A stretch of DNA of 64,000 nucleotides, taken from Gemmatimonas sp. Its GTDB lineage: Bacteria; Gemmatimonadota; Gemmatimonadetes; Gemmatimonadales; Gemmatimonadaceae. The position numbers and the translations under genes were made by a program. Within the stretch, counting starts at the first letter, position 1. The number at the start of each line of letters is the position of its first letter. Positions 1,067-27,333 of the stretch are shown in pieces. The notes below the pieces were generated by a model. The model had not been told where the DNA came from. It did not search any database and saw only the letters and a list, made by a program, of their open reading frames with translations. The DNA is taken from assembly GCA_965279375.1 (NCBI GenBank), contig OZ257156.1, positions 1,888,001-1,952,000 on the forward strand, given 5' to 3'.

Positions 1067-1083
1067 AGCAATGCGCGGGCCAG
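1067..1083 (-). promoter_or_regulatory. sigma54 -24/-12 promoter of flgB-flgC-fliE
   Basis: Minus strand CTGGCCCGCGCATTGCT = GG-N10-GC with TTGC, ~45 bp upstream of flgB. Confidence 0.8.
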
Positions 1084-1238
1084 ACGCGCAGAACGCCGAC
1101 TTCCCGTGTCGGGCTGGTCGGCGTTCTATGGACTCAAGTCGTTCAATCGCAACGCATTAGGCGGAATAAATTCGCCCGGTTTCGACGCGGTTTTCGGCGT
1201 GGACGCGGCACTCGGCGGAGGGCGTTCGGCGTCCCAAG

Positions 1239-1277
1239 CGGAACTTTCTGCCGACCCTGAAGGGGCGCGACTTGCCG
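1239..1277. promoter_or_regulatory. Tandem putative enhancer (UAS) palindromes for the flgB promoter
   Basis: CGGAACTTTCTGCCG (1239-1253) and GGGCGCGACTTGCCG (1263-1277) match the CGGCA-N5-TGCCG motif found at the other sigma54 promoters. An IHF-like box AAGTCGTTCAATCGCAACGCATTA (~1136-1159) lies between them and the promoter. Confidence 0.6.
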
Positions 1278-1298
1278 CCTCCACCGCCAGATGCGCGG

Positions 1299-2768
1299 CT
1301 ACTCTTCCTCCGCCTCCGCCTCGCGACCCGGCCCGTTGAGCTTGTTCCGCAGCGTTCGCACGCTGATCCCCAACAGCTCTGCCGCCTTGGTTCGATTGTT
1401 ATCGGCAGCTGTCAGCGCATGCTGAATGAGCACGCGCTCGGCGTCTGCGACGTTCAGTGAATTCAGGCTGATCCCGTCGCCAGACCCGCCGGCAACTGCG
1501 GCCCCAACACCGCGTGGCGTCGGCGCCTTGATCGACGCAAAGCTCCCCGACGACCCCACCGACCGCGGACGCATGGACGGGGTGCCGAGCGAGTGCGCCA
1601 GCCCGAACCGCGTCCCCTCGAGACAGTGCGGCTGGATCATCGGGTCGGGCGTGAGGATCACCGCCCGCTCGATCACATGCTGCAGCTCACGGATATTGCC
1701 CGGCCACGGATACTGCTGCAGCGCATCGATGGCGTCGGGCGAGATCCCCTCGATCTTCTTGCCGATCTCGGCGGCGGTCCGCATCGCGAACCGAAGCGCC
1801 AGCACCGGGATATCCTCGGCGCGCTCGCGCAGCGGCGGGATCAGGACCGGAATCGTGGAGAGTCTATAGTAGAGGTCCTGACGGAAGGTCCCCTGGTCGG
1901 CTTCGGCGGCCAGATCGCGGTTGGTGGTAGCGACGATGCGCACGTCCACCTTGATCGGACTGGTGCCGCCCACCCGCTCGAACTCCTGCTCCTGTAGCAC
2001 GCGCAGCAGCTTGGCCTGCAGGTCGAGCCGCATCTCGGAGATTTCGTCCAGCAGCAGGGTGCCGCGGTTGGCTCGCTCGAACGCCCCCTCCACCCGCTTG
2101 ATCGCGCCGGTGAAAGCCCCCTTCTCGTGCCCAAAGAGCGCGCTCTCCACCAGCCCTTCCGGAAGCGCCGCGCAGTTGAGCTTGATGAACGGCTTGTCGC
2201 GGCGCTCCGACTGGTCGTGGATGGCACGGGCGAACAGCTCCTTACCCGTTCCCGACTCGCCCTGCAGCAGGACCGTCGCTCGAGTGGGCGCGGCCATCGC
2301 CACCGTCTGCAGAATGCGTCGAATCGCGGCCGAATCGCCGATGATCTGCCGCTCGTTGCGGAACTGCATGACCTCCTTGCGGAGGGACTCGTTCTCGCGG
2401 CGCAGGCGGACGAACTCGAGCGCCTGTTCGACGGCCAGCTCGAGCTGCTGGGGACGGACGGGCTTGGTGATGTAGTCGATGGCGCCCGCCTTGATGGACG
2501 CGACCGCGTGCTCGATGCTCGCATACCCCGTGAGCATGATGAGCGGGATGTCGTATCCCTCACGGGTCAGCAGCTGGATGAACTCGAGCCCGGTCAGCCC
2601 CGGCATGCGATAGTCGGAGATGATCAGGTCGATGCCACCGCGTTCCAGAATCTGCAAAGCCTCCGGTACGCTGCGCGCTCCCACGGGGACGTGCCCGGCA
2701 CCTTCGAGCGTGTCTTCCAGGATGAGGCCGACGCTGGGTTCGTCGTCTACGTACAGGATGGTGGCCAT
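1299..2768 (-). CDS. sigma54-dependent response regulator (REC-AAA+-HTH, NtrC/FlrC-type); likely flagellar regulator
   Basis: REC (YVDD...DYRMP), Walker A GESGTGKE, GAFTGA, LLLDEI, WPGNIREL, C-terminal NRTKAAELLGISVRTLRNKL; start set at MATIL (2768). Confidence 0.93.
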   Translation of the reverse strand: MATILYVDDEPSVGLILEDTLEGAGHVPVGARSVPEALQILERGGIDLIISDYRMPGLTGLEFIQLLTREGYDIPLIMLTGYASIEHAVASIKAGAIDYITKPVRPQQLELAVEQALEFVRLRRENESLRKEVMQFRNERQIIGDSAAIRRILQTVAMAAPTRATVLLQGESGTGKELFARAIHDQSERRDKPFIKLNCAALPEGLVESALFGHEKGAFTGAIKRVEGAFERANRGTLLLDEISEMRLDLQAKLLRVLQEQEFERVGGTSPIKVDVRIVATTNRDLAAEADQGTFRQDLYYRLSTIPVLIPPLRERAEDIPVLALRFAMRTAAEIGKKIEGISPDAIDALQQYPWPGNIRELQHVIERAVILTPDPMIQPHCLEGTRFGLAHSLGTPSMRPRSVGSSGSFASIKAPTPRGVGAAVAGGSGDGISLNSLNVADAERVLIQHALTAADNNRTKAAELLGISVRTLRNKLNGPGREAEAEEE

Positions 2769-2800
2769 CGGGTTGGTTGGAGGTGCCGAGTGACAGGCGC

Positions 2801-2817
2801 TGCAAGTGTGCGTCCAT
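2801..2817 (-). promoter_or_regulatory. Putative sigma54 promoter of the regulator gene
   Basis: Minus strand ATGGACGCACACTTGCA = GG-N10-GC; the palindrome CGGCAAAAATAGCCG (2843-2857) lies just upstream. Confidence 0.55.
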
Positions 2818-2858
2818 GAAGTATGGGGCAAAACATCCCACCCGGCAAAAATAGCCGC

Positions 2859-2886
2859 TAAAGCCGGACTGTGCCGCACCCGATAC
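2859..2886 (+). promoter_or_regulatory. sigma28 (FliA)-like promoter of flgL-fliW
   Basis: TAAA-N16-CCCGATAC, ~70 bp upstream of flgL. Confidence 0.65.
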
Positions 2887-4443: not shown

Positions 4444-4463
4444 CGCAGCGCGCCGCTGTCGCG

Positions 4464-5972
4464 ATGAGCGCTCGCACCAAGGCTGCGCAGGCGGACGAAC
4501 AGTTTCGCGCTGCGCTCGCCATCGCGCAGGCGGGTGATGCGCCGCGCGCCATGAAGCTGCTCGATCGCACACTCATGCTTGACGCACGCCATCGTGGTGT
4601 GCGTAACGCGCTTGGTGTGTTGCGTCTCGAATCGGGAGACGTTGCCGGCGCGATCTCGCTGCTCAAGCCACTCGCGCGTGATGTTCCCGATGCGGCCGGT
4701 GTGCAGCTCAATCTTGGCAATGCGCTCGTGGCCGCGGGTCGCGCCAATGAGGCTATTGCGCCGCTCAAGCGCGCTACTGCCCTCGATCCCAACTCGGCGC
4801 TCGCCTGGTACGGCTATGCGCGCGCACTGCAGACCGCAGGACGTGCGGCAGACGCAGTGCACGCCTATCGTGTCGTGCTGCAGCACGCGCCGGCTCATGT
4901 GGAATCGCGCGCGAGCATTGCCGCCGCGCACAATTTTCTTGACGAATACGTCGAGGCTGAACGCGAAGCGCGCGAAGCGATACGCCTGATGCCATCGCAC
5001 GCGGGGGCACACCTGAATCTCAGCGTCGCGCTGCTGGCGCAGCATCGCTGGGCTGAGGGATGGGCCGAGTACGAGTGGCGCGAGCGGACGGCGCTGTTGG
5101 ATGGACAGCGTCGCAGCTGGGCGCGACCTCGCTGGGATGGTGGCGCGGTCGCGGGACGCACCGTGCTGGTGCACGCCGAGCAGGGATACGGCGATACGCT
5201 GCAGTTCGTGCGGTATCTGCCGGCGCTCCGTGCGCTGGGTACGCGCGTGGTGCTCCAGTGTCCGGCGCCGCTCGTCGCGCTGCTCGAGCATGCCGTGCTG
5301 GCTGACGAAGTGATTGCCTTTGGCGACGAGCTACCCCCGCATGATGTGCAGCTCCCGCTCACTGGGTTGCCACTTCGTTTGTGCTGTGACTCCGACGCCG
5401 CGGTCTACCGACAAGATGGCCCGTATCTGTCGACCGTCCCGTCGCGCGCCACGTCGCTACCCGAGCGCACGTCGGCAACGGAGCTGCGCGTGGGACTCGT
5501 GTGGGCGGGCAGCGGCACGCATGTGAACGACATGCATCGGTCGTGCGGGCTCGATGCGTTGCGACCGCTGTGGGATATCGCCGGCGTGTCGTGGTTCAGC
5601 TTGCAGGCGGGGCCGCGCGCGTCCGATCTCAAGGCGCTGCCGAAAGGCATCGTGGTGCACGATCTCGCGCCGCAGCTGCACGACTTTGCGGATACCGCCG
5701 CCGCCATCGCCGCGCTCGACATGGTGATCTCGGTCGATAGCGCGGTCGCGCATCTGGCTGGCGCGCTGGGGCGCCCGTGCTTGATGCTGGCGCCGCGCGT
5801 GGGGCTCGACTGGCGCTGGGCGAACGCGCCGGCTGGCGGCGAGGCGGATGGCAGCGGGTGGTATCGCTCGCTCGTGGTGGTACGTCAGGCGGCGCCGTCC
5901 GACTGGAGCGGCGCGGTGGCCGAGCTCGGGGCGCGCCTCGCCCGGCTCGCGACGACTTCCGCACGAGTGTAG
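4464..5972 (+). CDS. TPR-repeat glycosyltransferase (C-terminal GT9-like domain)
   Basis: N-terminal TPR helices; W.EGW.EYEWR, EQGYGDTLQFVRY, VGLVWAG, DFADTAA, VDSAVAHLAGALG, DWRW. Confidence 0.88.
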   Translation: MSARTKAAQADEQFRAALAIAQAGDAPRAMKLLDRTLMLDARHRGVRNALGVLRLESGDVAGAISLLKPLARDVPDAAGVQLNLGNALVAAGRANEAIAPLKRATALDPNSALAWYGYARALQTAGRAADAVHAYRVVLQHAPAHVESRASIAAAHNFLDEYVEAEREAREAIRLMPSHAGAHLNLSVALLAQHRWAEGWAEYEWRERTALLDGQRRSWARPRWDGGAVAGRTVLVHAEQGYGDTLQFVRYLPALRALGTRVVLQCPAPLVALLEHAVLADEVIAFGDELPPHDVQLPLTGLPLRLCCDSDAAVYRQDGPYLSTVPSRATSLPERTSATELRVGLVWAGSGTHVNDMHRSCGLDALRPLWDIAGVSWFSLQAGPRASDLKALPKGIVVHDLAPQLHDFADTAAAIAALDMVISVDSAVAHLAGALGRPCLMLAPRVGLDWRWANAPAGGEADGSGWYRSLVVVRQAAPSDWSGAVAELGARLARLATTSARV

Positions 5973-5975: not shown

Positions 5976-6011
5976 CGGCAGCTTCTGCCGGTTCCGGCGC
6001 GCTCTGTGCCG
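5976..6011. promoter_or_regulatory. Tandem putative enhancer palindromes
   Basis: Perfect CGGCAGCTTCTGCCG (5976-5990) and degenerate GCGCGCTCTGTGCCG (5997-6011), 21 bp apart; IHF-like box at ~6046-6070. Confidence 0.65.
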
Positions 6012-6074: not shown

Positions 6075-6091
6075 GTGGCACTGATCGTGCT
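6075..6091 (+). promoter_or_regulatory. sigma54 -24/-12 promoter of the asnB-like/SDR/GT operon
   Basis: GTGGCACTGATCGTGCT = TGGCAC, GG-N10-GC; 55 bp upstream of ATG 6147. Confidence 0.8.
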
Positions 6092-6146: not shown

Positions 6147-7880
6147 ATGTGCGGTATCGCTGGTCTCCTTGATTACTCGCGTGGTGGGCTCGGTGCACTC
6201 ATCGATGAGTTCACCGACGCGTTGGCGCATCGGGGACCTGATGGGCGCGGCGTGTACGTGGAGGGACCCGTGGCGCTGGGGCACCGGCGTCTTTCCATTC
6301 TGGATCCGTCCGACGCGGGCCGCTGCCCGATGGCCGTGGAGTGTCCTGATGGGACCACGCTCTACATCACGCTGAACGGCGAGATCTACAACTTCCTCGA
6401 GCTGCGCGAGACGCTGCGCCGGGATGGCTACTGCTTCCGCAGCGAGACCGACACGGAAGTCGTGGCCGCGGCCTTTCATCGCTGGGGCGAAGACTGTCAG
6501 CGCCGCTTCAACGGCATGTGGGCGTTCGCGATCTGGGCGCCGGCCACGCAGTCGCTGTTCCTCTCGCGAGATCGCTTCGGCGTCAAGCCGCTCTACGTGT
6601 CGGTGCAAGGCACACGTGTCGCGTTTGCGTCTGAGATCAAGGCGTTTCTTGCACTGCCAGACTTCAAGCCGCGACTCAGCGAAGAGGCCGCGCAGCTGTT
6701 CTTCGCCAATCCCACCTCGTACGACGGCGTCACGCTCAGTACGGCGCTGGAAGGTGTGCATCGCGTGCCGCCCGGACACTCGCTCACCGTCACGAGCGCG
6801 GGGAGCAAAGGCTTTCGCCGCTGGTGGGAAACGCGCGATCATCTGCCGTCGATTCCGTCGCGCTACGACGAGCAGGTGGAGCAGTTCCGCGCGCTCTTTC
6901 TGGATGCCGTGCGGCTGCGCATGCGCAGCGATGTGCGTATCGGCACCTCACTGTCGGGTGGGCTCGATTCGAGCGCCGTCGCCTCTGCGGTGGCCCACGT
7001 GGCGCGTAATGATGCGCACGCCGACCTCGCACGTTGCGCGACCGATTGGCAGCGCACCTTCATCGCGACATTCCCCGGGCATGCGGTGGACGAACGCGAG
7101 TACGCGGACATCGTTGTCGCGCACACGCACGCATCGCCGACGTACTGGAGCTTCAATCCCGACACGACGCTCGCCGACATTCCCGCGAGCGTGTGGGCGA
7201 TGGATGACCTGAGCGGCGCACCGGCGGTGCCCGTGTTCAACATCTATCGCACGATGCGTGAGCATGGCGTCGTTGTCACGCTCGACGGGCATGGCGGCGA
7301 CGAACTCCTCGCCGGCTATGGCTGGTACCGCGACTTACCGCCCAACGCGCTGAACGATGCGTTGTACGCGGACTTTCATCGCACGCATCTTCCCGCGATC
7401 CTGCGCAACTTCGATGGTTGCTCGATGGCCAATGGCGTGGAAATCCGGTCGCCGTTCCTCGACTGGCAATTGGTGACCTACGCATTCGCGCTGCCGGCTT
7501 CCACCAAGTACGACGGCAGCTTCAGCAAGCGCATCCTGCGCGACGCGCTCGCCGGCATCATGCCCGACGCGATTCGCACGCGTACGTCGAAACTCGGCTT
7601 CGAGTCCCCGCTCATCGCGTGGGCCAACGGATCGTTAGGACCCGCGCTGCTCGCGGCGTCACGCACCGAGGCATGGCAGCGTGCGCCCAAGACGGCACGT
7701 GCCGCCGAACTCGCGGCGATCGTGCAAGCGCGAACGCCGTCTCGTTCGTGGAGCAGCGCCGACAGCGTGGCGATTTCGCTCGCATGGCGCGTGTTCGTCT
7801 TCGTGCTCTGGCAGGAGCTCTACCTGGGAACCGGCACGAGCAGCGTGGCAACGCACCCAGTACTCGCTGCGGCATCGTAA
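6147..7880 (+). CDS. Asparagine synthase (glutamine-hydrolysing) family amidotransferase, probably sugar amidation
   Basis: MCGIAG Ntn N-terminus, HRGPD, NGEIYNF, RDRFGVKPLY, SLSGGLDSS, G.GGDELLAGY, E.RSPFLD. Confidence 0.9.
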   Translation: MCGIAGLLDYSRGGLGALIDEFTDALAHRGPDGRGVYVEGPVALGHRRLSILDPSDAGRCPMAVECPDGTTLYITLNGEIYNFLELRETLRRDGYCFRSETDTEVVAAAFHRWGEDCQRRFNGMWAFAIWAPATQSLFLSRDRFGVKPLYVSVQGTRVAFASEIKAFLALPDFKPRLSEEAAQLFFANPTSYDGVTLSTALEGVHRVPPGHSLTVTSAGSKGFRRWWETRDHLPSIPSRYDEQVEQFRALFLDAVRLRMRSDVRIGTSLSGGLDSSAVASAVAHVARNDAHADLARCATDWQRTFIATFPGHAVDEREYADIVVAHTHASPTYWSFNPDTTLADIPASVWAMDDLSGAPAVPVFNIYRTMREHGVVVTLDGHGGDELLAGYGWYRDLPPNALNDALYADFHRTHLPAILRNFDGCSMANGVEIRSPFLDWQLVTYAFALPASTKYDGSFSKRILRDALAGIMPDAIRTRTSKLGFESPLIAWANGSLGPALLAASRTEAWQRAPKTARAAELAAIVQARTPSRSWSSADSVAISLAWRVFVFVLWQELYLGTGTSSVATHPVLAAAS

Positions 7881-8762
7881 ATGACGGCAACCGTGCGACG
7901 TCCAGTTGTGGTGGTAACCGGTGCAGGCGGCCTCGTGGGCCGACACCTCGTGCCGATGCTCGCCGAGCACTGGGATGTCGTCGCAGTCGCGCGTGCAGAG
8001 GGCGACGCGCGATCCCACGTGCAGAACGTGGTACGTGATCTCGCGACTGACGGCTTTGCCGATGGCTTGCCCGCGAAGGTGGATGCGGTCGTGCATCTCG
8101 CGCAGTCGCGTCGTTTTCGCGAGTTCCCGGAAGGTGCGGCCGACGTACTGGCCGTGAATGTCGCGTCCACCGAGCGGCTGCTCGCGTACGCGGCGGCGGC
8201 GGGAGCGTCGCACTTTGTGTACGCGAGCTCGGGTGGCGTGTATGCGCCCTCCAGCGCTGCATACCATGAGGACGGTGCGGTCGCGTCGCCTGCGCAGGCA
8301 GGATGGTATCAGGCGTCCAAGCTGGCCGCTGAGGCGTTGGTGCATGGGTATCGCACGCGGCTGGTTCCCGTCGTGCTGCGTCCGTTCTTCATCTATGGCG
8401 CCGGACAGCGGCGCCACATGCTCATTCCGCGTCTGGCCGACACGCTCAAGCGCGGCGATGCCGTGCAACTGGCCGGACTCGATGGCATGCACATCTCGCC
8501 GACGCATGCGTCCGATGCGGCGCGCTGCATTGTGCGATCGCTGCAGTTGCGCGAACCCGCCACGATCAACGTGCGCGGCCCCGAGGTGCTTTCGCTGCGC
8601 ACGATCGGCGAGATGCTGGCTTCAGCAATGGACGTACCCGCACGCTTCGTCACCAACGACAACACCGGCCCTGACTACGTGGCCGACGATGCGCGTATGC
8701 GGGCACTGCTCGGCGATGCCGAGTGTCGCTTCGCTGAGCATCTCCATACCATCCTTCCGTGA
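7881..8762 (+). CDS. NAD-dependent epimerase/dehydratase (extended SDR)
   Basis: VTGAGGLVG, VVHLA, SSGGVY, YQASK (YxxxK). Confidence 0.88.
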   Translation: MTATVRRPVVVVTGAGGLVGRHLVPMLAEHWDVVAVARAEGDARSHVQNVVRDLATDGFADGLPAKVDAVVHLAQSRRFREFPEGAADVLAVNVASTERLLAYAAAAGASHFVYASSGGVYAPSSAAYHEDGAVASPAQAGWYQASKLAAEALVHGYRTRLVPVVLRPFFIYGAGQRRHMLIPRLADTLKRGDAVQLAGLDGMHISPTHASDAARCIVRSLQLREPATINVRGPEVLSLRTIGEMLASAMDVPARFVTNDNTGPDYVADDARMRALLGDAECRFAEHLHTILP

Positions 8763-11725: not shown

Positions 11726-11729
11726 GGAA

Positions 11730-12395: not shown

Positions 12396-12419
12396 CGTGA
12401 GTCTCCGGACGAGTGACCG

Positions 12420-15160: not shown

Positions 15161-15162
15161 CG

Positions 15163-16374: not shown

Positions 16375-16386
16375 GGAGCGTCCTTG

Positions 16387-18269: not shown

Positions 18270-19008
18270 TGATCCGCCCTCCACGTTCCATGTCTTCGCG
18301 ATAGTACGTGCGCATCGAGTCAGCACGTCCGCTGATGCAGCGCTCGATACGCGCCGCAGGTGACATCGGCGACTCGGTCCACCACTCAGGATGCGTGAGT
18401 ACCTGCAGCGTGGAGTGCGTGCCCGTGCGCAGGACATCCTCGAGGCGGCGATGGCGCCAGTAGCCATTCGAGTCGGAGACATATCCGACGCGCTGCTGAA
18501 AGCGTGTCGCGTACGTGTTCACTCGACGGCCATAGGTTGCGCGCTCGCAGGAGAGGAGAAACGGCGTAGGCTGGTGGAAGGAGAAGGCCGTGACCGGCGT
18601 CCGCAGCACACGTTCGAGAATGGACGCTTCCCACGTCACCAGTTCGTCCAGCACGTCTTCTGTGCTCACCCCGTGAAAGTCGGTGTCCAGATGCAGGCCC
18701 ACCGCGTGTCCGAGCTGCACGATCTCTCGCGCGACTTCGGCAACAGGCTGCTCGAGCAGGTTGTACAGCTCACTGTGCAGGCGAAAGAAGTACGTCGAGC
18801 GGACTCCCTCTTCGGCCTCGATGCGCGCAAGCGCCCGCGCTGCGTGCACGGAGTAGTCCACATCGTGGCGCCACAGTACACTGCCGTCAGGGAGCTCGTC
18901 TTCGGAGAAGTCCGCGAACGCGTAGCGCTGCTGCGCGAGGCGCAGCAGCGCGCGATAGTTGTCGCGCGTGAAGTCGTTGAAGTGGTATCGCGAGGCGAGC
19001 TCCGTCAT
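18256..19008 (-). CDS. Polysaccharide deacetylase-like protein
   Basis: LWRHDVD, STYFF, GH.VGLH, SFHQP, YVSDS, LTHP.WW (NodB-like metal motifs). Confidence 0.75.
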   Translation of the reverse strand: MTELASRYHFNDFTRDNYRALLRLAQQRYAFADFSEDELPDGSVLWRHDVDYSVHAARALARIEAEEGVRSTYFFRLHSELYNLLEQPVAEVAREIVQLGHAVGLHLDTDFHGVSTEDVLDELVTWEASILERVLRTPVTAFSFHQPTPFLLSCERATYGRRVNTYATRFQQRVGYVSDSNGYWRHRRLEDVLRTGTHSTLQVLTHPEWWTESPMSPAARIERCISGRADSMRTYYREDMERGGRINVGA

Positions 19009-19017
19009 GGTTGCTCC

Positions 19018-20922
19018 TTACGCCGCGGCTTGATGCGCGACGCCTGCGTCGCGGAACTGACGCAGCCACCACTCGAAGTTGAGCAGCGACCAGATCAGCA
19101 GGCGATGGTTCACGCGCCCCTCCACGTGCTCGTCGAGGAGGGTGTGGACGGTGGCAGGCTCAATGAATTCGTACAGCCGCGCATCGCGGCTGGAGAGCAG
19201 GCGGCGGATGTAGTCGATGCTCTCGCCCTTGAACCAGCTGCCGTCGGGAGCGGAGAAGCCCTGCTTGCGCGCCTGCGCATAGCCTTGCGGCACGTAGCGC
19301 GAGAGTGCCTTGCGCAGAAGCAGCTTGCCGTCGCCGGTCTCGTTGAAATACTGCTGCTTCTTCGAGCCAGGCGTGTTCTCGTCCATGCGCACCAGCTTGT
19401 CCACGTGCTTCAGCTTGTACTTGATGGGCACCCGCAGGGCGAAGTCTACGAGATCGTTGTCGAGGAACGGCACGCGCGTCTCCAGGCCATGCGCCATGGA
19501 GAGCTTATCCTCGACGAGCAGCAATCCATTGAGGAACGTGGAGAGCTCGAAGTACAGCGAGGTGTTGATGTAGTCGTCCGGACGCATCGCCAGAAACGAC
19601 CGGCGACGGAGGACGTTGCGGAACGCTTCCTGTGGCCCATTCGCCGGCATTTGGCCGGCCATCGATGGACGGAAGAAGCCTGCGCGATGCGTGTCGGGGA
19701 CCAGACGCTGCCAGTACGCGTAGTACTTGTCGATGTACTGCGCGGCGTCGTCGTTCTTCACGGCGCGATAGTAGCGCCACGGATAGCCGGCGAAGATCTC
19801 GTCGCCGCCCGTACCCGCGAGCACGACTTTCACGAAGCGCGAGGCGAGGCGGGAGACGTAGTAGTTGGGATAGCTCTGTCCAACGCGCAGATCTTCGAGA
19901 TGCCAGACGAGCTTGGGGAGCACGCGCTCCATGTCGCCGGCCTTGAGCACCACCTGATAGTGCTCGGTCTTGTATGCGTTGCTCAGCTGTTCCGCGCGTG
20001 CTCGTTCGTCGAATGCGAGCTCCAGCCCAGATGCCGATGACAAATCGAAGCCCGCCGTGAAGCTCTTCACGTTGCGGAACTTGCGCGCGGTCAGGCAGGT
20101 CACGGCTCCCGAGTCGATGCCACCACTCAGATATGTGCCAACCTCCACGTCGGCTTCCACCTGGCGCGCGACCGCCTGCTGAAACAGGCGGTCCAGCTCT
20201 TCGAGATACTCACCTTCGGACACGCCCTTCTCGTCCTTGAAGGTGTAGTCCCACCACCGCTTGGTCAGCAGCGATTCCGGATCGCCCAAGGTCAGCGTGA
20301 GCATCGTCGCGCGCGGCATCAGCTTGATGCCGTCGAACAGCGTGCGATCGCTGAAGACGTTCTGAAAGGTGAAGTACTCGTTCAACGCCGAGGTGTCGAC
20401 GCGCACCTGCACCGACGGATGCGCGAGCAGCGACTTGATCTCCGAGCCGAAGAGCAGCGTCTGCCCATCCCAACGATAGTACAACGGCTTGATGCCATAG
20501 CGGTCCCGCGCAAGGAACAGCTTGGACTCACGGGCGTCCCAAATTGCAAACGCAAACATGCCATTGAACTTTTCGAGGCACTTGGGGCCCCATTCGCGGT
20601 ACGCCGCGAGAATCACTTCGGAGTCGCTTTGCGAACGGAAGACATGTCCCTTCCGCTCGAGCTGCTTGCGGAGCTCGCGCCAGTTGTAGATCTCGCCGTT
20701 GTACGTCAATACCAGCGACCCGTCGGCCGAGCGCATCGGCTGATGCCCCTGCTCCGACAGGTCTACGATGGCCAAACGACGATGGCCGAACCCGACGAAA
20801 CCGCCGGTCCAGAAGCCTTCGCCGTCGGGTCCGCGGTGCTTGACGATATCCGTCATCGCGCGCAGCACACCGATCGGAACCGGTGCGCCGTTCACGTTGA
20901 AGATGCCGGCGATGCCGCACAT
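19018..20922 (-). CDS. Asparagine synthase (glutamine-hydrolysing) family amidotransferase, second copy
   Basis: MCGIAG, HRGPD, RDRYGIKPLY, YLSGGIDS, GGDEIFAGY, EDKLSMAHGLETRVPFLD, KQGF. Confidence 0.93.
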   Translation of the reverse strand: MCGIAGIFNVNGAPVPIGVLRAMTDIVKHRGPDGEGFWTGGFVGFGHRRLAIVDLSEQGHQPMRSADGSLVLTYNGEIYNWRELRKQLERKGHVFRSQSDSEVILAAYREWGPKCLEKFNGMFAFAIWDARESKLFLARDRYGIKPLYYRWDGQTLLFGSEIKSLLAHPSVQVRVDTSALNEYFTFQNVFSDRTLFDGIKLMPRATMLTLTLGDPESLLTKRWWDYTFKDEKGVSEGEYLEELDRLFQQAVARQVEADVEVGTYLSGGIDSGAVTCLTARKFRNVKSFTAGFDLSSASGLELAFDERARAEQLSNAYKTEHYQVVLKAGDMERVLPKLVWHLEDLRVGQSYPNYYVSRLASRFVKVVLAGTGGDEIFAGYPWRYYRAVKNDDAAQYIDKYYAYWQRLVPDTHRAGFFRPSMAGQMPANGPQEAFRNVLRRRSFLAMRPDDYINTSLYFELSTFLNGLLLVEDKLSMAHGLETRVPFLDNDLVDFALRVPIKYKLKHVDKLVRMDENTPGSKKQQYFNETGDGKLLLRKALSRYVPQGYAQARKQGFSAPDGSWFKGESIDYIRRLLSSRDARLYEFIEPATVHTLLDEHVEGRVNHRLLIWSLLNFEWWLRQFRDAGVAHQAAA

Positions 20923-20952
20923 CAGCGCGTCACTCCAAATCGCATCGTGTGA

Positions 20953-21966
20953 CTACGCGGCGTTGACGAGCTGCAGCGGACGGCCAGCGGCCTGCGCGGC
21001 CACGCGTCCGAGATGTGCATCGCGCCACGCGATCAGGCGCGTCAGTCCATCACGCAGTTCGATCGTTGTGCGGAAGCCAAGATCGCGCGCCGCCTTCTCC
21101 GGGCAGCCCACGCGATTCGTCACGAACACTCGGCTCTCCGGCTCGTACTTGATCTGCTGCGAGGAGCCGCGGATCTCGAGAATCATTTCGGTCAGCTCGC
21201 GCAGCGAGGTGCGCGTGCCACTGCCGACGTTGTACGCTTCCTCGGTCACGTCGCTCTCGAGCGCGAGTACGTTGGCCCGCGCGCAGTCGCTCACGTAGAT
21301 GAAGTCGTACGCCGCCGAGCCGTCGCCGTGGAGGATGGGAGGCAGGCCGCGATCGAGGCGATCGAGGATCTTCATGATCACCGCGATGTACGTGCCCTTA
21401 TAGTCCTGGCGCGCACCGTACACGTTCATGTAGCGCAGCATCGCGACGGACAGGTTGTAGCGATCGGCATACGACTTCACCATCGCTTCGCCGGCGATCT
21501 TGGTGGCGCCGTAGAACGTCTTGTTGTTGAACGGGTGCGACTCGGTCATCGGCAGCTCCACCGCATCGCCGTACACGGAGGCGGAGGAGGAATAGACGAG
21601 GCGCTCGATGCCGTGCTGGCGGCACGCGTCGATCACGTTGAAGGTGCCGCGCACGTTCACGTCGAACGCGGCCTGCGGGAATTCATGGCACTGGAGCAGC
21701 CATAGCGCAGCCAGATGCACGACGCACTGACTCTCCTTCACCGCCGACGACAGAATGTCCGACTGCAGGATGTCGCCGCCCGTCTCGAAAATCCGGACGC
21801 GCGGATCGCGCAGTGCCTCGGAGAGATTGTCGACGGTGCCACGACAGAAATTGTCGTAGACGATGACCTGCTTCACGTCGCGCGTCAGCAACTCGTCTAC
21901 GACATGAGAGCCGATGAAGCCGGCGCCGCCGATGACACAGATCGTCTTGCCGCGAAGGTCACGCAT
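20953..21966 (-). CDS. NAD-dependent nucleotide-sugar epimerase/dehydratase
   Basis: GGAGFIGSH, HLAA, SSSASVYG, YGATK, RYMNVYG. Confidence 0.92.
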   Translation of the reverse strand: MRDLRGKTICVIGGAGFIGSHVVDELLTRDVKQVIVYDNFCRGTVDNLSEALRDPRVRIFETGGDILQSDILSSAVKESQCVVHLAALWLLQCHEFPQAAFDVNVRGTFNVIDACRQHGIERLVYSSSASVYGDAVELPMTESHPFNNKTFYGATKIAGEAMVKSYADRYNLSVAMLRYMNVYGARQDYKGTYIAVIMKILDRLDRGLPPILHGDGSAAYDFIYVSDCARANVLALESDVTEEAYNVGSGTRTSLRELTEMILEIRGSSQQIKYEPESRVFVTNRVGCPEKAARDLGFRTTIELRDGLTRLIAWRDAHLGRVAAQAAGRPLQLVNAA

Positions 21967-22052: not shown

Positions 22053-22114
22053 ATCGTAAAGCGTTTGATCGCAACACTTTAGGTCGAAAGCGCTCCTGAG
22101 AATCCCCGCTTGGC

Positions 22115-22150
22115 GGGCGACCATTGCCGTGACACCGGCAACTTCTGCCG
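22115..22150. promoter_or_regulatory. Tandem putative enhancer palindromes
   Basis: GGGCGACCATTGCCG (22115-22129) and perfect CGGCAACTTCTGCCG (22136-22150), 21 bp apart. Confidence 0.68.
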
Positions 22151-22177: not shown

Positions 22178-22789
22178 CTAGCGTTCCCCAATCAGCACGA
22201 ACGCCGCACGCGCGGACGTGTTCGTCGAAGCGTCCGGGGGAAGGAGTCCGCCAAACACCGGGTCGAGTCCGGATGCGTCGAGGAACGCATGGAGTTCGGG
22301 AAACGTCCACTCGCGCACATATCCCGCCTCGGCAGGCGGGCCGGGGTCGTCGCCCGCGACAGTCAGCTGTCGAACAGACGTGCCGAGTACCACGATCGCC
22401 GATTCGCGGGTGAGCAAGCGAAGTCGCGCCAACAGCGGCACAGGATCGGCGAGTCGCTGCAGGACGTCGTCGCAGACCACGACGAGATTCGGCGAGAGTC
22501 GGTGCTCGGTCAATGCAGTGTCCGGCCGCATCCAGTCGATGTCCGCCAGTATGCTGCTGCCAAGGGCGTTCGCTATGGCCGTCGCCAACGCCATCGTACC
22601 GCCATCGGCGGTGAGCGACGCGCTCGGAACCGCTGCCTCGGCGCGCGCAACGTATCCCGGACGGATGCAGTAGTTCGGCAGCGCGCCCAGCAAGAACGGT
22701 CGAAGTGGCGCCGCGTACGGCTGCAACAGCGACGGTGTGATCGCGGAAGCGATAGCGTCGAGCGTGGATGCAGAAGCGGCGCGGTTCAT
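22178..22789 (-). CDS. Hypothetical protein with a degenerate methyltransferase-like C-terminus
   Basis: VVCDDVLQRLADP..LL and GPP....YVREWT resemble class I MTase C-terminal motifs; there is no GxG SAM loop; coupled to the upstream stop. Confidence 0.55.
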   Translation of the reverse strand: MNRAASASTLDAIASAITPSLLQPYAAPLRPFLLGALPNYCIRPGYVARAEAAVPSASLTADGGTMALATAIANALGSSILADIDWMRPDTALTEHRLSPNLVVVCDDVLQRLADPVPLLARLRLLTRESAIVVLGTSVRQLTVAGDDPGPPAEAGYVREWTFPELHAFLDASGLDPVFGGLLPPDASTNTSARAAFVLIGER

Positions 22790-24726
22790 GTCGCCGGCGC
22801 TCCAGCCGTGTCGGTTGTGCTCACGATGAATAGATGTCCGGTGAGCTGCGGTCCGTCGGCGATCAACAGGTCCGGCGTTCGACGATCACGGTGCGCACGA
22901 TCGGTCGCGGCCAGCAGGCCGAGGTCGCTCATGGAGCCGTCGATGTCACCGTACGGCGTCAGTCCGCGCGCGGCGAGCCATCGCGGCACGCCATTGAGAC
23001 CATCGAGTGCGTGCGGTTGCGGCGGACCAGCGAGGCGGATCGGCGCACAGGAGAGGAGGAGACCGCCGGGCTTCACGCACGACGCGGCGAGCGAAAGCAT
23101 CGCCCCGATCTCCGTCGCGGCGAGGCTGTTGTCGAATGGCAGGACGACAGCCGCGTCGAACGGTTCCGGCGTGACGTCGCGTGTAAGCGCCTCGATTGCC
23201 ACCGCACGTACTCGGCCCGCGGGCGCAGCCTGTGTCGCGAAGCGCTCGGGCGCAGCAAGCCAGTCGGACCCGTCATGTCCCGAATAGCGATCGAGCACAT
23301 CGGCGACAACCACCTGTGCGACATGTCTCGCCAGCCCCCAGACCAGCGGAGCGCGCAGGTCGGAGACAATCAGCAGGCGCGCGTCGGAACGCAGCGCGCC
23401 GCAGGCTCGCAGTGTGAACGCCGCTTGCGTCGTACGCCAAGTGGCCAGCGTACGATCGTACCACTGCTGTTCGCCACGGCCATCGCCTGCAAACTCCACC
23501 GCCGTTGCGAACCACACGGGGTCGTCCCAGTCCTGCGCGTCAGCGAGCCGACTCAGCGTCGTTGAGCGCTCGCCGATGCGAACCGGCAGGCGCGACGTAC
23601 GCCGACGCGCGTCCAACAATGTCTGAATGGACTGCAGCAACCGAAGTTCGAGAGAGGAGGCGTGTCCAGACTCCACGCGTTGGTCGAGCATCGTCTTCGC
23701 CGGTGCACTGGCGTACCGCGCAGCGACCGCGATATCGCCATGCTCGCCAGCGGCATGCAGCAACAGCGCGATATCCGCACGCGCGCGATCGACTTCACTC
23801 TGTCGCAGCGGCCCGCGACGCTGCAGTCGATGTTGCAGGGCGACGGCGAGCGCGACGTCGCCGCGCTCGCGCCCGTAGGCGAGACGTCCGTCGGGCTGTA
23901 CAAGCCCTTGTGCGCGCCACTTCTCGACGAGATAGCGCTGCTTGTCGAGCGAGCCACCTTGCACCAGTGCCGGCAACGCCACGCCGGACTTGTGCCCGTG
24001 GTGAATCACGGGCGCTGTCGGCAGTGCATACACATCCCAGCCGGCGACCAACGCGCGAACGGAGATGTCGTCATCCTCGTGCCAGAACGGATTGAGCGCT
24101 TCATCGTAGCGACCGATGTCGCGAAACACCGCGGGGCGCACGAAGCACGCGAAGCCGCCGGATGCCACATCGACCTGGATCGCAGCGTGCCCGGGTAGTG
24201 AGAGCAGTTCGCGCCGATCGCCGTGCACTACGATCTCATGTCCGGAACAGGAGGCGATACCCGCGTTCGGCTGCCGCGCGAACAGTTCGAGAAACGGCGT
24301 GGCCCAGCCCGGATAGAACTCGAGATCATTGTCGATGAAGATGATCCATCCGTCGTCGGGGATTCGATCCAGCATCAACTCGAGCAGTCGATTCCGCCCG
24401 CCGGCGACGCCGAGGTTCGCGTCACCCAGTTCGGTGGACACGCGTGGATCATCCAGCGATGCGAGCCAATCACGCGTGCCGTCGGTCGACAAGTTGTCCA
24501 GAATGACAGCGCGCCAGGGCTCTGTCGTGTAGCGGTCAAGACTGGCGAGACAGCGCTTGGAATATGCCAACGCGTTGAACGTCAGGATCGCGAACCACAG
24601 CTTGGGTGGCGAGTCATAGGTCTCCGGCTCAGTCGATGGCGCGATCAGACGTAACCGACACGGATGCGTCGATGCCTCCACGCGCTTCCCCGCCGGCCGC
24701 GATTCTCGGTGTGAGATGACGCTCAT
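22786..24726 (-). CDS. GT2 glycosyltransferase fused to a degenerate methyltransferase-like domain
   Basis: ILTFN, LDNLSTDGT, NLGVAGGRN, FIDND (DxD), FWHEDDD; start at MSVIS (ATGA overlap). Confidence 0.85.
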   Translation of the reverse strand: MSVISHRESRPAGKRVEASTHPCRLRLIAPSTEPETYDSPPKLWFAILTFNALAYSKRCLASLDRYTTEPWRAVILDNLSTDGTRDWLASLDDPRVSTELGDANLGVAGGRNRLLELMLDRIPDDGWIIFIDNDLEFYPGWATPFLELFARQPNAGIASCSGHEIVVHGDRRELLSLPGHAAIQVDVASGGFACFVRPAVFRDIGRYDEALNPFWHEDDDISVRALVAGWDVYALPTAPVIHHGHKSGVALPALVQGGSLDKQRYLVEKWRAQGLVQPDGRLAYGRERGDVALAVALQHRLQRRGPLRQSEVDRARADIALLLHAAGEHGDIAVAARYASAPAKTMLDQRVESGHASSLELRLLQSIQTLLDARRRTSRLPVRIGERSTTLSRLADAQDWDDPVWFATAVEFAGDGRGEQQWYDRTLATWRTTQAAFTLRACGALRSDARLLIVSDLRAPLVWGLARHVAQVVVADVLDRYSGHDGSDWLAAPERFATQAAPAGRVRAVAIEALTRDVTPEPFDAAVVLPFDNSLAATEIGAMLSLAASCVKPGGLLLSCAPIRLAGPPQPHALDGLNGVPRWLAARGLTPYGDIDGSMSDLGLLAATDRAHRDRRTPDLLIADGPQLTGHLFIVSTTDTAGAPAT

Positions 24727-27056
24727 CGAGCACCTCCTCCCGCCATGGTCTGTCCATCGTGCAACGTGGGCATCGCGGCGATTCGCTCCGTCATTTCGCG
24801 CGCGACGGCGCCAAATGAGGGAAGACCTTCCGCATATCGTCGCGCCTGCCCACCGCGTCGCGCAACCTCCAGCGCATTCAGGAGCTCGCGTAGGCACGCC
24901 ATGAGATCGGCGCCCGCCATCATGCCGTGCGCTCCCTGACGCACGACCCAAGCGGCCTCTGCATCGCGCAACGGCTCGGCGTCCGCCGTATCCGGAACGA
25001 CGAGCGCACGGCCACACGCAAGCGTCGTGTGCCACACGGAGAGGTCGATGTCGCCCGGGACGATCACGACATCGGCGGCGCGCACATACGACGGCAGCGT
25101 TGCATCGTTAACCTCGGCGACCAGCACCTCCGCCGTAAGCCCGGGCGCCAATCGGCCGGTCAGCATGCGCGACGTGAGCTCCGCTCCCCACGCGACGAGC
25201 GCGTCCGAGGCATCGTTGGCCACCAGCAGCTGTAGCCGCGCCGGCGTAGACGGTGTGACCACGCGTTGCCACACACGCAGCACCAGCTCTGCGCCGGCAA
25301 TGTCGGCGGCGTCGAGCACAGGCAGCAGGATCATCGTGCGCACATCGCGCGGGCGCGGAAACTGGGTTGCGTCCGGCGTCACCCGATCCGCGATGCAACC
25401 GGAGGGCGCCATCCAGAGCCGATCCGCCTCAATACCGGCGGACAGGCACGCCGCATACGCCGCATGATGCGGCACCCACACCTCGTCAGCGTGCGCACGC
25501 ACGATCGCGGCGAGTTCGGTCGACAGATGCGCGCGGACTGCAGTACCTGTGTAGACAATCCAGCGGCCATGCGCGGGCACGTACTGCGGCAGCGGGTGCG
25601 CGATATCGAGCGCAGACAGCGTCGTATCGGCAGTCGCGTCCGCGTCTGCAGGCGTTGCGACCAGACATTCCCACAGCTTCTGCGCAGGCAGCGTACGCGG
25701 CGGGCGCTGCGCGGAGTCGGTCGTGAGCATGAGCCGCGGTGCCACGCTGAGTGTCTCGACCAGCGCGGTCAGGAGAGGCTCGGTGTGGATGGCCGACGAT
25801 GCAGCGAAAACGTTGGCGCGAATGTCGAGCGTTCCGGCGTCCGTCGTGTACGCCGCGCCGTCCGCCGCGTTTGCCCGCACGCCGACATGGGCATGTCTTC
25901 CTGGTGCGATCTCATGCAAGCGACCTGCGATGATCGTCGCCGCGCGTGACCATGGCCAGTGCGCCACCATGTCGGCGCGCGCGCGTGCGCCGAGTGCGCG
26001 CGCCTTGTCGGGTTGATCGTGAATCGCGCGCAGATGCGAGACGAGCGCGTCGAGCTGTGGTGCGGCCCAGCGATGCCCATCGTAGAGGCGCATGTCCGGA
26101 TCGTCCACGTCCACCAACGCGTCAGTCTCGATCAGCAGACTGTTCTCGTCGTTCATGTAGTCGAGATGCGCACTCCAACGGGTGGCGATCACCGGCACGC
26201 CCGTCGACATTGCCTCCATGAAGGGGCGTCCCCACCCTTCGCCGCGCGTCGGGGACACGAACGCGTGCGCGCTTCGATAGAGCGATGGCATTGCATCGGC
26301 TGGCAGATCTTCGGTGAGCACGACGATCGGCGCAACGTTGGCGAGCGATCGGCCGCACTCCTGCCGCAAAAACGCGTCGATGCGCCGCTCGATCTGCAGC
26401 GCTGGCGCGTCGGCCGGGAGATCGAGATTGGCGTGAATGCGTTTGGCGTGCGTGCGCAACACGAGCGTGACATCATCGCTGGCCGAGAAGGCATTGGCCC
26501 ACGCGCGCAGAAGGACGTCCCACGCTTTGCGTGCGCGCCACTCGAAGACGCTGAGATAGACCGTGCCACGGAGCCCCGGGATTTCACGCGGCGCGACGTC
26601 GGGCGAGAAGAGATCCGTGTCGATGCCCCCGGGCACCACGTGCATCGGCACCCGGACACCGGCGCGGCGAAAGGTCTCGACATTGAACGAACTCGGCACC
26701 CACAGTTCGTCCATCCGATTGCACTTGGCTACCCAGTTCGGTGGCAGCGAATCAGTCTCGAACATCGTGCGGCCCACATTGTAGGCCGCCGTCGGCGCTT
26801 CCACGAAGCCGTCGGCGACGTAGTGCTGCACCAGCACGAACGGATTGGCCAACGCGCGCGACTGCTGCCGCTCCAGCACTTCGCGCATAGGGGTGGGGAG
26901 GCCATGAGCGAAGTCGGCATCCAGCGCCGCCTTGGCGCGCAGCGCGATCGGAACCCCAGCTTGCTCCAACGCGAACAGCAGGCCCCGCCCTTCATCGGCG
27001 TAGCCTGTCGGTTCATAGATGGGGCCGATCCAGACGCAGTTGGAAATGTCGCTCAT
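24723..27056 (-). CDS. GT4 glycosyltransferase with a second degenerate GT-B module
   Basis: TGYA, TMFETD, DELWVPS.FN, RKAWDVLL, SPTRGEGWGRPFMEAM; C-terminal half repeats DEVWVP. Confidence 0.88.
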   Translation of the reverse strand: MSDISNCVWIGPIYEPTGYADEGRGLLFALEQAGVPIALRAKAALDADFAHGLPTPMREVLERQQSRALANPFVLVQHYVADGFVEAPTAAYNVGRTMFETDSLPPNWVAKCNRMDELWVPSSFNVETFRRAGVRVPMHVVPGGIDTDLFSPDVAPREIPGLRGTVYLSVFEWRARKAWDVLLRAWANAFSASDDVTLVLRTHAKRIHANLDLPADAPALQIERRIDAFLRQECGRSLANVAPIVVLTEDLPADAMPSLYRSAHAFVSPTRGEGWGRPFMEAMSTGVPVIATRWSAHLDYMNDENSLLIETDALVDVDDPDMRLYDGHRWAAPQLDALVSHLRAIHDQPDKARALGARARADMVAHWPWSRAATIIAGRLHEIAPGRHAHVGVRANAADGAAYTTDAGTLDIRANVFAASSAIHTEPLLTALVETLSVAPRLMLTTDSAQRPPRTLPAQKLWECLVATPADADATADTTLSALDIAHPLPQYVPAHGRWIVYTGTAVRAHLSTELAAIVRAHADEVWVPHHAAYAACLSAGIEADRLWMAPSGCIADRVTPDATQFPRPRDVRTMILLPVLDAADIAGAELVLRVWQRVVTPSTPARLQLLVANDASDALVAWGAELTSRMLTGRLAPGLTAEVLVAEVNDATLPSYVRAADVVIVPGDIDLSVWHTTLACGRALVVPDTADAEPLRDAEAAWVVRQGAHGMMAGADLMACLRELLNALEVARRGGQARRYAEGLPSFGAVAREMTERIAAMPTLHDGQTMAGGGAR

Positions 27057-27091
27057 GCTCCGTGGGATGGGTCGTCAGCAAGCTGGCTAAA

Positions 27092-27108
27092 GGCAACAGG
27101 CATGCCGC
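27092..27108 (-). promoter_or_regulatory. sigma54 promoter of the leftward GT4-GT2 operon
   Basis: Minus strand GCGGCATGCCTGTTGCC = GG-N10-GC with TTGC, 35 bp upstream of 27056. Confidence 0.72.
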
Positions 27109-27155
27109 GCTGAGAGATTCTCTAAGTGATTGCAATTAATGGCGTTGCGTTGAAC

Positions 27156-27254
27156 CGGCAGAATCGGTCCGTCACGCCATCGGCAATTGTCGCCGTCCGG
27201 CGCGGTCCCAAAATGCCCGGCAGTTCTTGCCGTTTGTCCGCGCGCTATCTGCCG
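27156..27254. promoter_or_regulatory. Cluster of putative enhancer palindromes shared by divergent promoters
   Basis: CGGCAATTGTCGCCG (27181-27195), perfect CGGCAGTTCTTGCCG (27218-27232), and half-matches at 27156 and 27240. Confidence 0.65.
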
Positions 27255-27316
27255 GATTTTGGCGAGGCGGACTCATTCCTCATCGCGTAACTGTATGCCC
27301 AACAGCGAGTTGCGGC

Positions 27317-27333
27317 GTGGCACGAATCGTGTA
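27317..27333 (+). promoter_or_regulatory. Putative sigma54 promoter of the rightward GT4-GT2-GT4 operon
   Basis: GTGGCACGAATCGTGTA: perfect -24 TGGCACG, but the -12 reads GT instead of GC; otherwise resembles 6075 and 22036. Confidence 0.55.

Follow-up and report, generated by a model that had tools for sequence, protein, structure and literature searches.

A palindromic enhancer module likely shared by basal-body and glycan-island operons in a Gemmatimonas flagellar cluster

Does one activator switch on both the flagellar basal-body genes and the neighboring glycan island in Gemmatimonas sp.? In a 64,000-nt stretch of this genome (the window) and in its surroundings, a palindrome is situated upstream of sigma54-type sequences at four basal-body and four glycan-island operons, and is likely the enhancer through which the adjacent FlbD-type activator (REG) would switch all eight on together. 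The first-pass annotation had assigned flgB and the four island operons, above a sigma28-like tier, to this one REC-AAA+-HTH protein, which, going by the shared module and an FlbD-type helix, is still the most likely regulator.

The palindrome and its promoter module

The predicted module features in the window are as follows.

719..1021, minus strand: flgB, named by position (no Pfam or NCBIfam match), heading the flgB-flgC-fliE-fliF-fliG...flgE unit
1067..1082, minus strand: flgB sigma54 -24/-12 element by matrix score, TGGCCCGCGCATTGCT
1135..1147, minus strand: flgB IHF-like box, 2 mismatches to the general consensus
1239..1253: putative flgB enhancer site, 171 nt upstream of the -24 element
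1263..1277: weaker flgB partner site, 24 nt farther upstream
5976..5990: putative enhancer site of island operon 1, 100 nt upstream of the -24, with a half-site partner at 5997-6011
6076..6091, plus strand: sigma54 element of island operon 1, by matrix score
22036..22051, minus strand: sigma54 element of island operon 2, with IHF-like boxes at 22058-22081
22136..22150: putative enhancer site of island operon 2, 99 nt upstream, partner at 22115-22129
27092..27107, minus strand: sigma54 element of island operon 3, with an IHF-like box at 27123-27135
27181..27195: putative enhancer site of island operon 3, 88 nt upstream of 27107, partner at 27156-27170
27218..27232: putative enhancer site of island operon 4, 100 nt upstream of 27318, partner at 27240-27254
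27318..27333, plus strand: sigma54 element of island operon 4, with GT replacing GC at -12

All six 15-mers listed in the first-pass annotation (1239, 2843, 5976, 22136, 27181 and 27218) were found at these positions with exactly the letters given, three as perfect palindromes (5976, 22136 and 27218) and three with one mismatch each. Perfect copies of CGGCA-N5-TGCCG number three in the window, against 0.49 expected, and one out of 100 shuffles also gave three. Genome-wide there are 23 perfect and 779 one-mismatch copies, other spacers being as frequent, which speaks for chance palindromes in a 65% GC genome rich in CGGC and GCCG. The bare palindrome is common, and its non-random property is its placement. 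A genome-wide motif scan, as the annotation had proposed, confirmed that intergenic sites with at most one mismatch are enriched in the flagellar cluster, where nine occur in 4,001 bases (0.48 expected; six of the nine had been chosen by the annotation), as compared to 59 in 494,463 outside it. Three sites (0.19 expected) remain when only the held-out part of the cluster is counted. Only the 5-base spacer is affected, as spacers N2-N4 and N6-N9 yield zero to two intergenic cluster sites each, CGGCA-N4-TGCCG yielding none. With one spacer singled out, held-out sites recovered, and site and promoter conserved throughout the phylum, there is virtually no chance that the sites are random. The outer CC/GG flanks vary across the promoter set. 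Partner sites 17-26 nt away were found at 41 of 92 promoters, the control offsets of 30-39 giving 21 of 92; for the weaker partners reported at 21-24 bp, "usually" was too strong a word.

Five of the six -24/-12 elements claimed in the window stand (1067, 6076, 22036, 27092 and 27318), with scores of 12.1-14.4 on a matrix that, like the IHF box, was built on general consensus sequences; the sixth, 2801(-), fails (see below). The order is site, AT-rich IHF-like box and -24/-12 element, 88-171 nt apart, with site-to-promoter distances phased at about 11.75 nt, not 10.5. The IHF-like boxes hold up as an enrichment over the promoter set (at most one mismatch at 22 of 57 core promoters and at 12 of 35 in the island; 4% of shuffles and 3 of 48 control promoters), those within the window having two to three mismatches each. 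The genome contains rpoN and one IHF-like gene, the latter scoring below family cut-offs.

When a matrix trained on the window alone was run over the 5.3 Mb genome, the fliL site ranked 2nd and the fliQ sites 6th and 18th, and the three basal-body promoters beyond the window (fliL, fliQ and flgF) were recovered, each with a -24/-12 element 110-165 nt downstream of the site. The predicted regulon is consequently larger than first described. Its module-headed operons hold fliF, fliG, fliM, fliN, fliP-R, flhB, flhA and fliA, the last of these ending the fliQ operon. Both thresholds (sigma54 9, site 9.5), fixed only after the first results had been seen, are also passed by three gene heads of this genome that are not flagellar. 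Gene calls were corrected by hand at fliL/fliM, beside fliQ and over motA, where wrong-strand ORFs had been called; similar miscalls are possible in the relatives G223, G137 and G018.

The proposed conservation check showed the module recurring, in counts where kin are not independent, at 53 of 54 flgB, fliL, fliQ and flgF promoters of close relatives (n = 22) and at 28 of 32 core promoters of distant families and another class (17 of 18 genomes). In the close relatives it is also present at 31 of 52 island gene heads, at none of 17 fliC heads and at one of 107 other gene heads, that of flhA; in the distant genomes it was found at three of 135 other heads, all of them TPR-type genes between fliW and fliC. 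Island operons differing in gene content from genome to genome are still headed by the module. Eleven of the 21 island misses in close relatives are the TPR gene beside fliC, and no module match was found at the island heads of the island-bearing G005, G035 and G051.

The activator and its own promoter region

REG and the adjoining intergenic region contain the following.

1299..2768, minus strand: REG, REC-AAA+-HTH activator
2790..2814: conserved, unexplained dyad GACGC-N15-GTCAC (read on the minus strand), overlapping the -24/-12 element claimed at 2801-2816
2820..2848, minus strand: possible sigma70-type REG promoter TTGCCG-N17-CATACT, its -35 within the 2843 site
2843..2857: site between REG and flgL, likely an autoregulatory operator, kept in 21 of 22 loci
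2859..2886, plus strand: sigma28-like promoter of flgL-fliW-TPR gene, by sequence pattern

The REG receiver is canonical (D8, D9, D52, T80 and K102), its AAA+ domain carries GAFTGA, and its Fis-type HTH, at about residues 436-482, has an FlbD-type recognition helix, as assigned against an Azospirillum activator in the FlbD gene position (between fliN/motA and flhA), not against Caulobacter FlbD itself. The two agree at 22 of 35 HTH positions and, within the recognition helix, at 10 of 11; the best REG paralogue reaches 17 and 7, respectively. A tree of AAA+HTH groups REG with the Azospirillum protein (support 97/97), while an AAA-only tree does not settle the link to FlbD. On the NCBIfam FlbD model NF050807, REG scores 361 bits (cut-off 750), less than on the AtoC and NtrC models. 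A search for the FliX family gave no match here, the same search matching in Caulobacter as a positive control.

Could a true sigma54 enhancer be read by another of the ten enhancer-binding proteins in the genome? Six of the nine REG paralogues have a GAFTGA or GSFTGA loop (script search), and binding by REG is itself predicted. Yet only the adjacent REG has the FlbD-type helix, the site lies within REG's own promoter region, and site and REG are still together where structural genes have been lost, making another reader very improbable.

The -24/-12 element that the annotation placed at 2801(-) would have REG activate its own expression as well, through sigma54. GG-N10-GC does stand at 2801-2816, 41 nt from the 2843 site, but it scores 5.8 against 11.8-14.4 at the eight other promoters, and no IHF-like box fits. 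GG-N10-GC is in register in two of the 14 loci retaining the GACGC anchor, a score of at least 9 occurs at the equivalent position in one of 22 loci, and the module is found at 0 of 21 and 0 of 16 REG promoters in two sets of relatives. Self-activation of this kind is hence hardly credible. As 2801(-) is no conserved sigma54 promoter, the 2843 site is likely an autoregulatory operator through which REG would repress or tune its own non-sigma54 promoter. The sigma70-type pattern was found in only 5 of 22 loci, and a site upstream of REG in only four of the distant loci. The dyad was rejected as a promoter, having no strand bias.

The glycan island

The island and its edges, annotated from family matches, comprise the following.

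4464..5972, plus strand: TPR protein with a weak GT9 match (E 1.9e-5), last gene of the flgL unit
6147..13978, plus strand: island operon 1, six genes (amidotransferase, epimerase/reductase, large glycosyltransferase-like, NeuD-type acetyltransferase, methyltransferase, glycosidase/phosphorylase-like)
14039..21966, minus strand: island operon 2, seven genes (epimerase, amidotransferase, unknown, hexapeptide acyltransferase, methyltransferase, DegT-type aminotransferase, FemAB/GNAT)
22178..27056, minus strand: island operon 3, three genes (GT4-type, GT2, unknown)
27387..32308, plus strand: island operon 4, three glycosyltransferases (GT4, GT2, GT4)
32355..33806, minus strand: TPR protein divergent from flagellin, TPR clear
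34016..34783, plus strand: flagellin, with a degenerate sigma28-like element upstream

Neither an enhancer site nor a sigma54 element was found upstream of flagellin, and both TPR genes at the island edges are without a module in this genome. The module would support the earlier claim that the island is flagellar as far as regulon membership goes; that flagellin is the substrate does not follow, and flagellin is proposed here only as the likely target. Alternatively, the island belongs to the flagellar regulon and its glycan decorates another surface structure (LPS, capsule, a sheath or proteins other than flagellin). Exopolysaccharide systems are another setting in which several of the island's families are named, and relatives exist with no island (G001) or with a single gene. 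The two module-less TPR genes are moreover the best flagellin-transferase candidates, and the one beside fliC gave no GT match and, for its C-terminal half, no family or solved-structure match. On the other hand, the island lies between fliW and fliC wherever relatives show both genes, the G013 island is a single TPR-type gene with a module, and module-led TPR-type genes also occur in G002, G026, G030, G079, G089 and G163. TPR plus GT-B is furthermore the layout of FlmG (PMC7591256), which has an N-terminal TPR and a C-terminal GT-B part and lies beside flagellin genes; here TPR is clear in both edge genes, with the weak GT9 match in one of them. On balance we consider a target other than flagellin unlikely, though by no means negligible.

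Glycosylation genes in Caulobacter are under CtrA (PMC7591256), whereas the island operons here are module-led. RpoN-dependent genes in Helicobacter and Campylobacter include flagellin glycosylation enzymes, as described in PMC3930126, and sigma54 control of such genes therefore has precedent in that account. The FlgSR system of these bacteria has the cytoplasmic kinase FlgS as partner and early genes preceding the RpoN tier; unlike there, each island operon here is marked by a palindromic enhancer.

The 38 module-led genes come from eight unrelated families, with spacers near background identity. Recent copying of one island promoter cassette is unsupported (identity 0.32 against 0.25-0.27 shuffled, 18 modules). 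The module may be used as a sequence tag, placing highly variable glycan operons in the flagellar regulon without homology.

The proposed hierarchy and genomes without flagella

In the hierarchy that we propose, REG, probably phosphorylated on D52, would bind the site, together with its weaker partner if there is one, and loop to sigma54 polymerase with help from an IHF-like protein. Since its operons cover the MS ring, C ring, export gate, rod, hook, rings and fliA, REG would head the hierarchy. Transcription of flgL-fliW, flagellin and flgM would follow, driven by FliA from sigma28-like promoters, and the island sugars and transferases would be ready ahead of flagellin synthesis. The candidate phospho-donor, predicted to pass phosphate to REG, presumably from H23, is a HisKA-like protein without a sensor that lies beside motA. 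A short kinase (46080-46787) was set aside in this role because clear matches were found in just 9 of 13 genus genomes, those elsewhere being weak and generic. A phylum with almost no mapped regulation would thereby gain a testable hierarchy of activator, operator, eight promoters and candidate phospho-donor.

FleQ and FlrA head the sigma54-then-sigma28 cascade of polar flagella. The REG regulon would likewise top such a cascade, including fliA, flhF and fleN, with a canonical receiver, an FlbD-type helix and a conserved promoter site that differs from the GTCA-N6-TGAC type given for FleQ/FlrA in PMC4641369. The palindrome holds up as the candidate operator put forward by the annotation, the motif itself being already known, so that no new operator is involved: the FlbD site is quoted in PMC3333781 as CCCGGCAxxxxxTGCCGGG, and the core of this Caulobacter FlbD/ftr site equals the palindrome here. 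Like REG, Caulobacter FlbD is a REC-AAA+-HTH activator of sigma54 flagellar promoters, and it is described as also repressing, at ftr4 upstream of its own fliF operon (PMC3930126). The FlbD-position protein of Azospirillum has nearly the REG recognition helix, and tandem sites upstream of its fliF. Caulobacter FlbD, however, has an atypical receiver under FliX control, and its regulon differs from the one here, in which early genes and fliA carry the module and flagellin does not. The FlbD-like sigma54 activator DVU1063 of Desulfovibrio vulgaris, with 12 flagellar operons and a GGCA...TGCC motif according to PMC3333781 and PMC4641369, is given there an atypical receiver and a motif printed with a 4-base inner spacer, in contrast to the canonical receiver and the 5-base spacer here. 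What appears to be new is an activator with FlbD-type specificity that heads the whole hierarchy while keeping a canonical receiver; FlbD's DNA specificity can apparently serve at the top of a cascade running from sigma54 to sigma28, and no such wiring turned up in the literature searched. That search, with subscription journals and bioRxiv supplements outside its scope, found no account of this regulon in Gemmatimonadota. RNA-seq of G. phototrophica (PMC9862903 supplement), with small, mixed changes among about 26 rows, was given little weight.

Lastly, the module extends to genomes without a flagellum. At the threshold used, the HTH went unmatched in 14 of 73 flhA-positive genomes, and flhA is missing from 16 of 75 genomes that have an HTH match. 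Of 14 loci examined, 12 have REG next to fliA without intervening structural genes, and a site lies between the two in all 12; 11 of the 12 genomes with this adjacency gave no flhA match. This raises the question of what REG and FliA target after flagellum loss. Five genomes without flagella, searched for the sigma28 pattern, yielded 11 matches (reversed control 3) and no clear target set. Tentatively, and with somewhat more doubt than confidence, we propose that a sensor-less phosphotransferase feeds a single FlbD-type activator, which acts as master switch for the flagellum of the Gemmatimonadota, that its module was rebuilt, not simply copied, before incoming glycan operons, and that the donor-activator-sigma54 promoter-FliA-FlgM circuit has persisted in at least seven genera after loss of the flagellum, where it now drives a non-flagellar programme. 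In the 11 genomes without flhA, REG, site, promoter and fliA are kept as a compact cassette, which mostly adjoins a sensor-less HisKA-like protein.

The enhancer-promoter module in the flagellar cluster

The flagellar cluster extends from the window, which is G000:C1:1888001-1952000, to its left, where gene names rest on Pfam families and position; flgB was likewise assigned by position, family searches having given no match.

Window: flgC, flgB, a REC-AAA+-HTH activator (1299..2768, -; hereafter REG), flgL, fliW, a 21-gene glycan island, flagellin, fliD, fliS, flgM and chemotaxis genes
33 kb left of the window: fliF, fliG, fliI, flgE, fliL, fliM, fliN, fliO-P, fliQ, fliR, flhB, flhA, flhF, fleN, flgF, flgG, flgH, flgI, flgK, csrA, motA and motB
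Also within these 33 kb: a sigma factor in the fliA position
L004:4861-6588 (-): a single 575-residue ORF with FliO and FliP domains and a long low-complexity linker between them

All six palindromes (CGGCA-N5-TGCCG) reported in the first-pass annotation have exactly the positions and letters given there. Perfect copies number 23 genome-wide, which is unremarkable; intergenic sites with at most one mismatch number nine in the flagellar cluster against 0.48 expected, an enrichment found only for the 5-base spacer. When all positions of the 5.3 Mb were ranked by a matrix from the six named sites, the unseen fliL site came 2nd and the fliQ pair 6th and 18th. A sigma54 -24/-12 element follows the site at fliL (165 nt, with a perfect IHF consensus in between), fliQ (110 nt) and flgF (114 nt). 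Among gene heads that score at least 11 for sigma54, ten of 73 have a site scoring at least 12, compared with 23 of 2,159 other heads; seven of these ten are in the cluster, five of which had served in training. General consensus sequences for sigma54, sigma28 and IHF were used for scoring.

Conservation was analyzed in the clusters of 22 relatives, chosen with a preference for long contigs out of 40 genomes in which REG had a match, together with one paralogue locus. Homologues of REG with 94-96% identity in the HTH belong to Gemmatimonas sp. or Gemmatimonadaceae, and the host is accordingly regarded as Gemmatimonas-like. A module was defined as a site (score 9.5) 60-210 nt upstream of a -24/-12 element (score 9), with thresholds fixed after a first look at the data. 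In the 22 relatives, modules were found at 53 of 54 core heads, namely flgB, fliL, fliQ and flgF, and at 31 of 52 island heads, spread over 16 of 19 genomes, as against none of 17 fliC heads, none of 21 REG heads, one of 21 flgL heads and one of 107 others. In the 21 distant loci, which represent other genera, other families and a further class, 28 of 32 core heads had modules; so did 3 of 135 other heads, each of them a TPR-type gene between fliW and fliC. No p-value is claimed, because kin are not independent. IHF-like boxes (at most one mismatch) mark 22 of 57 core promoters and 12 of 35 from the island; the rate in shuffled sequences was 4%, and 3 of 48 control promoters had such a box. 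Partner sites occur in 41 of 92 promoters. Site-promoter distances show a periodicity of about 11.75 nt (R 0.41 for 64 gene-distance pairs, as high in 2 of 5,000 random sets), which is not fully explained. At the level of sequence, a real regulon built on a known element is well supported.

The genome carries rpoN, one HU-like gene and one IHF-like gene (L062, L063), despite the enriched IHF-type boxes, which suggests a single-subunit IHF. Far from the cluster, the 400 nt upstream of a PAS-GGDEF gene (L064:466-1746, -) contain a strong site and, 208 nt downstream of it, a sigma54 element; the gene is possibly an outlying regulon member linking to c-di-GMP. Two further genes reach both thresholds, for site and for sigma54, at close to chance level: a pilin-like gene (G000:C1:4784166-4784543, -) and an unknown gene (4309500-4310294, +).

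The glycan island

Four module-led operons account for 19 of the 21 island genes in the window. The promoters had been put forward as independent evidence that the island is flagellar; the module does show co-regulation with the basal body, but it does not show the substrate. Island content and orientation vary among genomes, the 214 genes in 25 genomes falling into 69 families. Module-led island genes number 38, in 20 genomes, and come from 8 families (22 at an identity of at least 45%), the distance often being 97-102 nt. In 18 island modules, spacer identity is 0.32, against 0.25-0.27 after shuffling, and these modules therefore do not stem from recent copying of a single cassette; an old duplication with later drift could still account for them.

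Both TPR genes at the island edges lie outside the module-led operons, one as the last gene of the flgL unit, downstream of a sigma28-like promoter, and the other divergent from flagellin. The Caulobacter flagellin transferase FlmG has a TPR plus GT-B layout (PMC7591256), but a GT match was obtained for only one of the two edge genes, and a weak one.

2859-2886 (+): sigma28-like promoter for flgL
38183-38210 (+): sigma28-like promoter for flgM
Flagellin: sigma28-like promoter, degenerate at -10

Expression after 24 h in 20 mg calcium versus 0 h in G. phototrophica (PMC9862903, about 26 rows of the supplement) gave log2 changes of -1.05 for the gene in the flgB position, -0.62 for fliQ and -0.59 for fliL, with slight rises for the activator (+0.33) and flagellin (+0.39). 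Three island genes went down (-0.44, -0.70, -0.48), unlike three others (-0.20, -0.08, +0.22). In these rows, the evidence on the regulon is weak and mixed.

The activator, its own promoter and a candidate phospho-donor

Ten enhancer-binding proteins are encoded in the genome. The best matches to the REG HTH in the plasmid collection were Azospirillum activators, and the one examined is X in a fliF-fliH-fliN-motA-X-flhA operon, which we take to be the position of FlbD, the Caulobacter sigma54 flagellar activator. At this locus two sites, 21 nt apart, lie upstream of fliF; their position is notable, not their number (six matches versus 6.9 expected). REG and this activator have 10 of 11 recognition helix residues in common, the best paralogue 7 of 11, and were joined at 97/97 in an AAA+HTH tree (18 rows), while an AAA-only tree (29 rows, one paralogue absent) left the grouping without resolution. 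Since REG would work like FlbD at the DNA level but differs from it in hierarchy, in its receiver (canonical in REG) and with regard to FliX, which was searched for and not found, we consider the system a probable variant of the FlbD type. No account of this regulon in Gemmatimonadota was found among the papers searched.

The sigma54 promoter proposed at 2801 did not hold up, as a score of at least 9 follows the 2843 site in only one of 22 loci, and GG-N10-GC is in register in two of 14 with the GACGC anchor. The site itself is conserved in 21 of 22 loci, at anything from 1 to 104 nt from the sigma28-like flgL promoter. A dyad on the REG side, GACGC-N15-GTCAC, by contrast lies 17-19 or 25-28 nt from it, in 13 of 22 loci. 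In five of 22, the right half of the site is also the -35 of a sigma70-like promoter. Most likely, the site would regulate REG itself, by analogy with FlbD, which represses at ftr4 (PMC3930126), although a site upstream of REG in only four distant loci counts against generality. The dyad (window 2790-2814, in the REG promoter region), conserved in 13 of 22 loci, is present eight times in intergenic DNA of the genome, in either orientation, and is perhaps the site of an upstream regulator.

L003:9137-9793 (+): sensor-less HisKA-like ORF of 218 residues, about 30 kb left of the window, between motA and csrA and divergent from motA
Window 46080-46787 (-): short histidine kinase, likewise sensor-less, that converges with cheB and has clear matches in 9 of 13 genomes of the genus

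The 218-residue ORF has a sub-threshold HisKA match, HisKA-like neighbours by features, and a histidine invariant in 14 of 14 aligned rows. Matches to it were found in 48 genomes, 43 of which have the REG-type HTH; within the family, the HTH is present in all 40 genomes with a match, and a match in none of the 24 without the HTH. The ORF is a candidate phospho-donor for REG.

Compact cassettes and loci beyond the phylum

In a sample of 301 genomes drawn from the phylum, flhA and a REG-type HTH occur together in 59, flhA alone in 14, the HTH alone in 16 and neither in 212; these tallies count one unpublished genome, G196, which is not used for any claim. Fourteen loci were examined, of which 13 belong to the 16 HTH-only genomes and one is a second copy in the flagellated genome G067. 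REG adjoins fliA in 12 of these, directly or across one inserted gene, and is found without fliA nearby in G206 and G279.

L134, L135, L256-L264, L267: compact cassette of REG, site, sigma54 promoter and fliA, often with flgM and the HisKA-like gene

A site lies between REG and fliA in all 12 cassettes, followed by GG-N10-GC in nine and GG-N10-GA in three, with a score of at least 9 in six. A flgM-like gene is retained in seven of the 12, and the HisKA-like ORF lies within 5 kb of REG in ten. Besides the copy in G067, the cassette occurs in 11 genomes without flhA, from seven genera and two families; flagellin was not found in the nine searched of these 11 (95-100% complete). Most simply, the flgB promoter would have been fused to fliA upon loss of the structural genes, and site and REG would have been retained together because one binds the other. 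The alternative is an origin as a separate duplicated cassette, as in G067.

In the genome collection, a pattern of the site and TGGCAC-N5-TTGC 75-105 nt downstream matched at least 120 stretches, with DNA for 80. In this single-pattern scan, 36 of 79 downstream ORFs were flagellar, 11 belonged to other families and 32 to none. Among the matches listed, most were from Alphaproteobacteria, and four Opitutaceae loci and one Sulfuricellaceae locus were flagellar.

L157, L169, L192, L203, L170: site and sigma54 element before flagellar genes, in Opitutaceae or a Sulfuricellaceae genome
L163, L178: this module upstream of glycosyltransferase genes, from two bacteria that are unclassified
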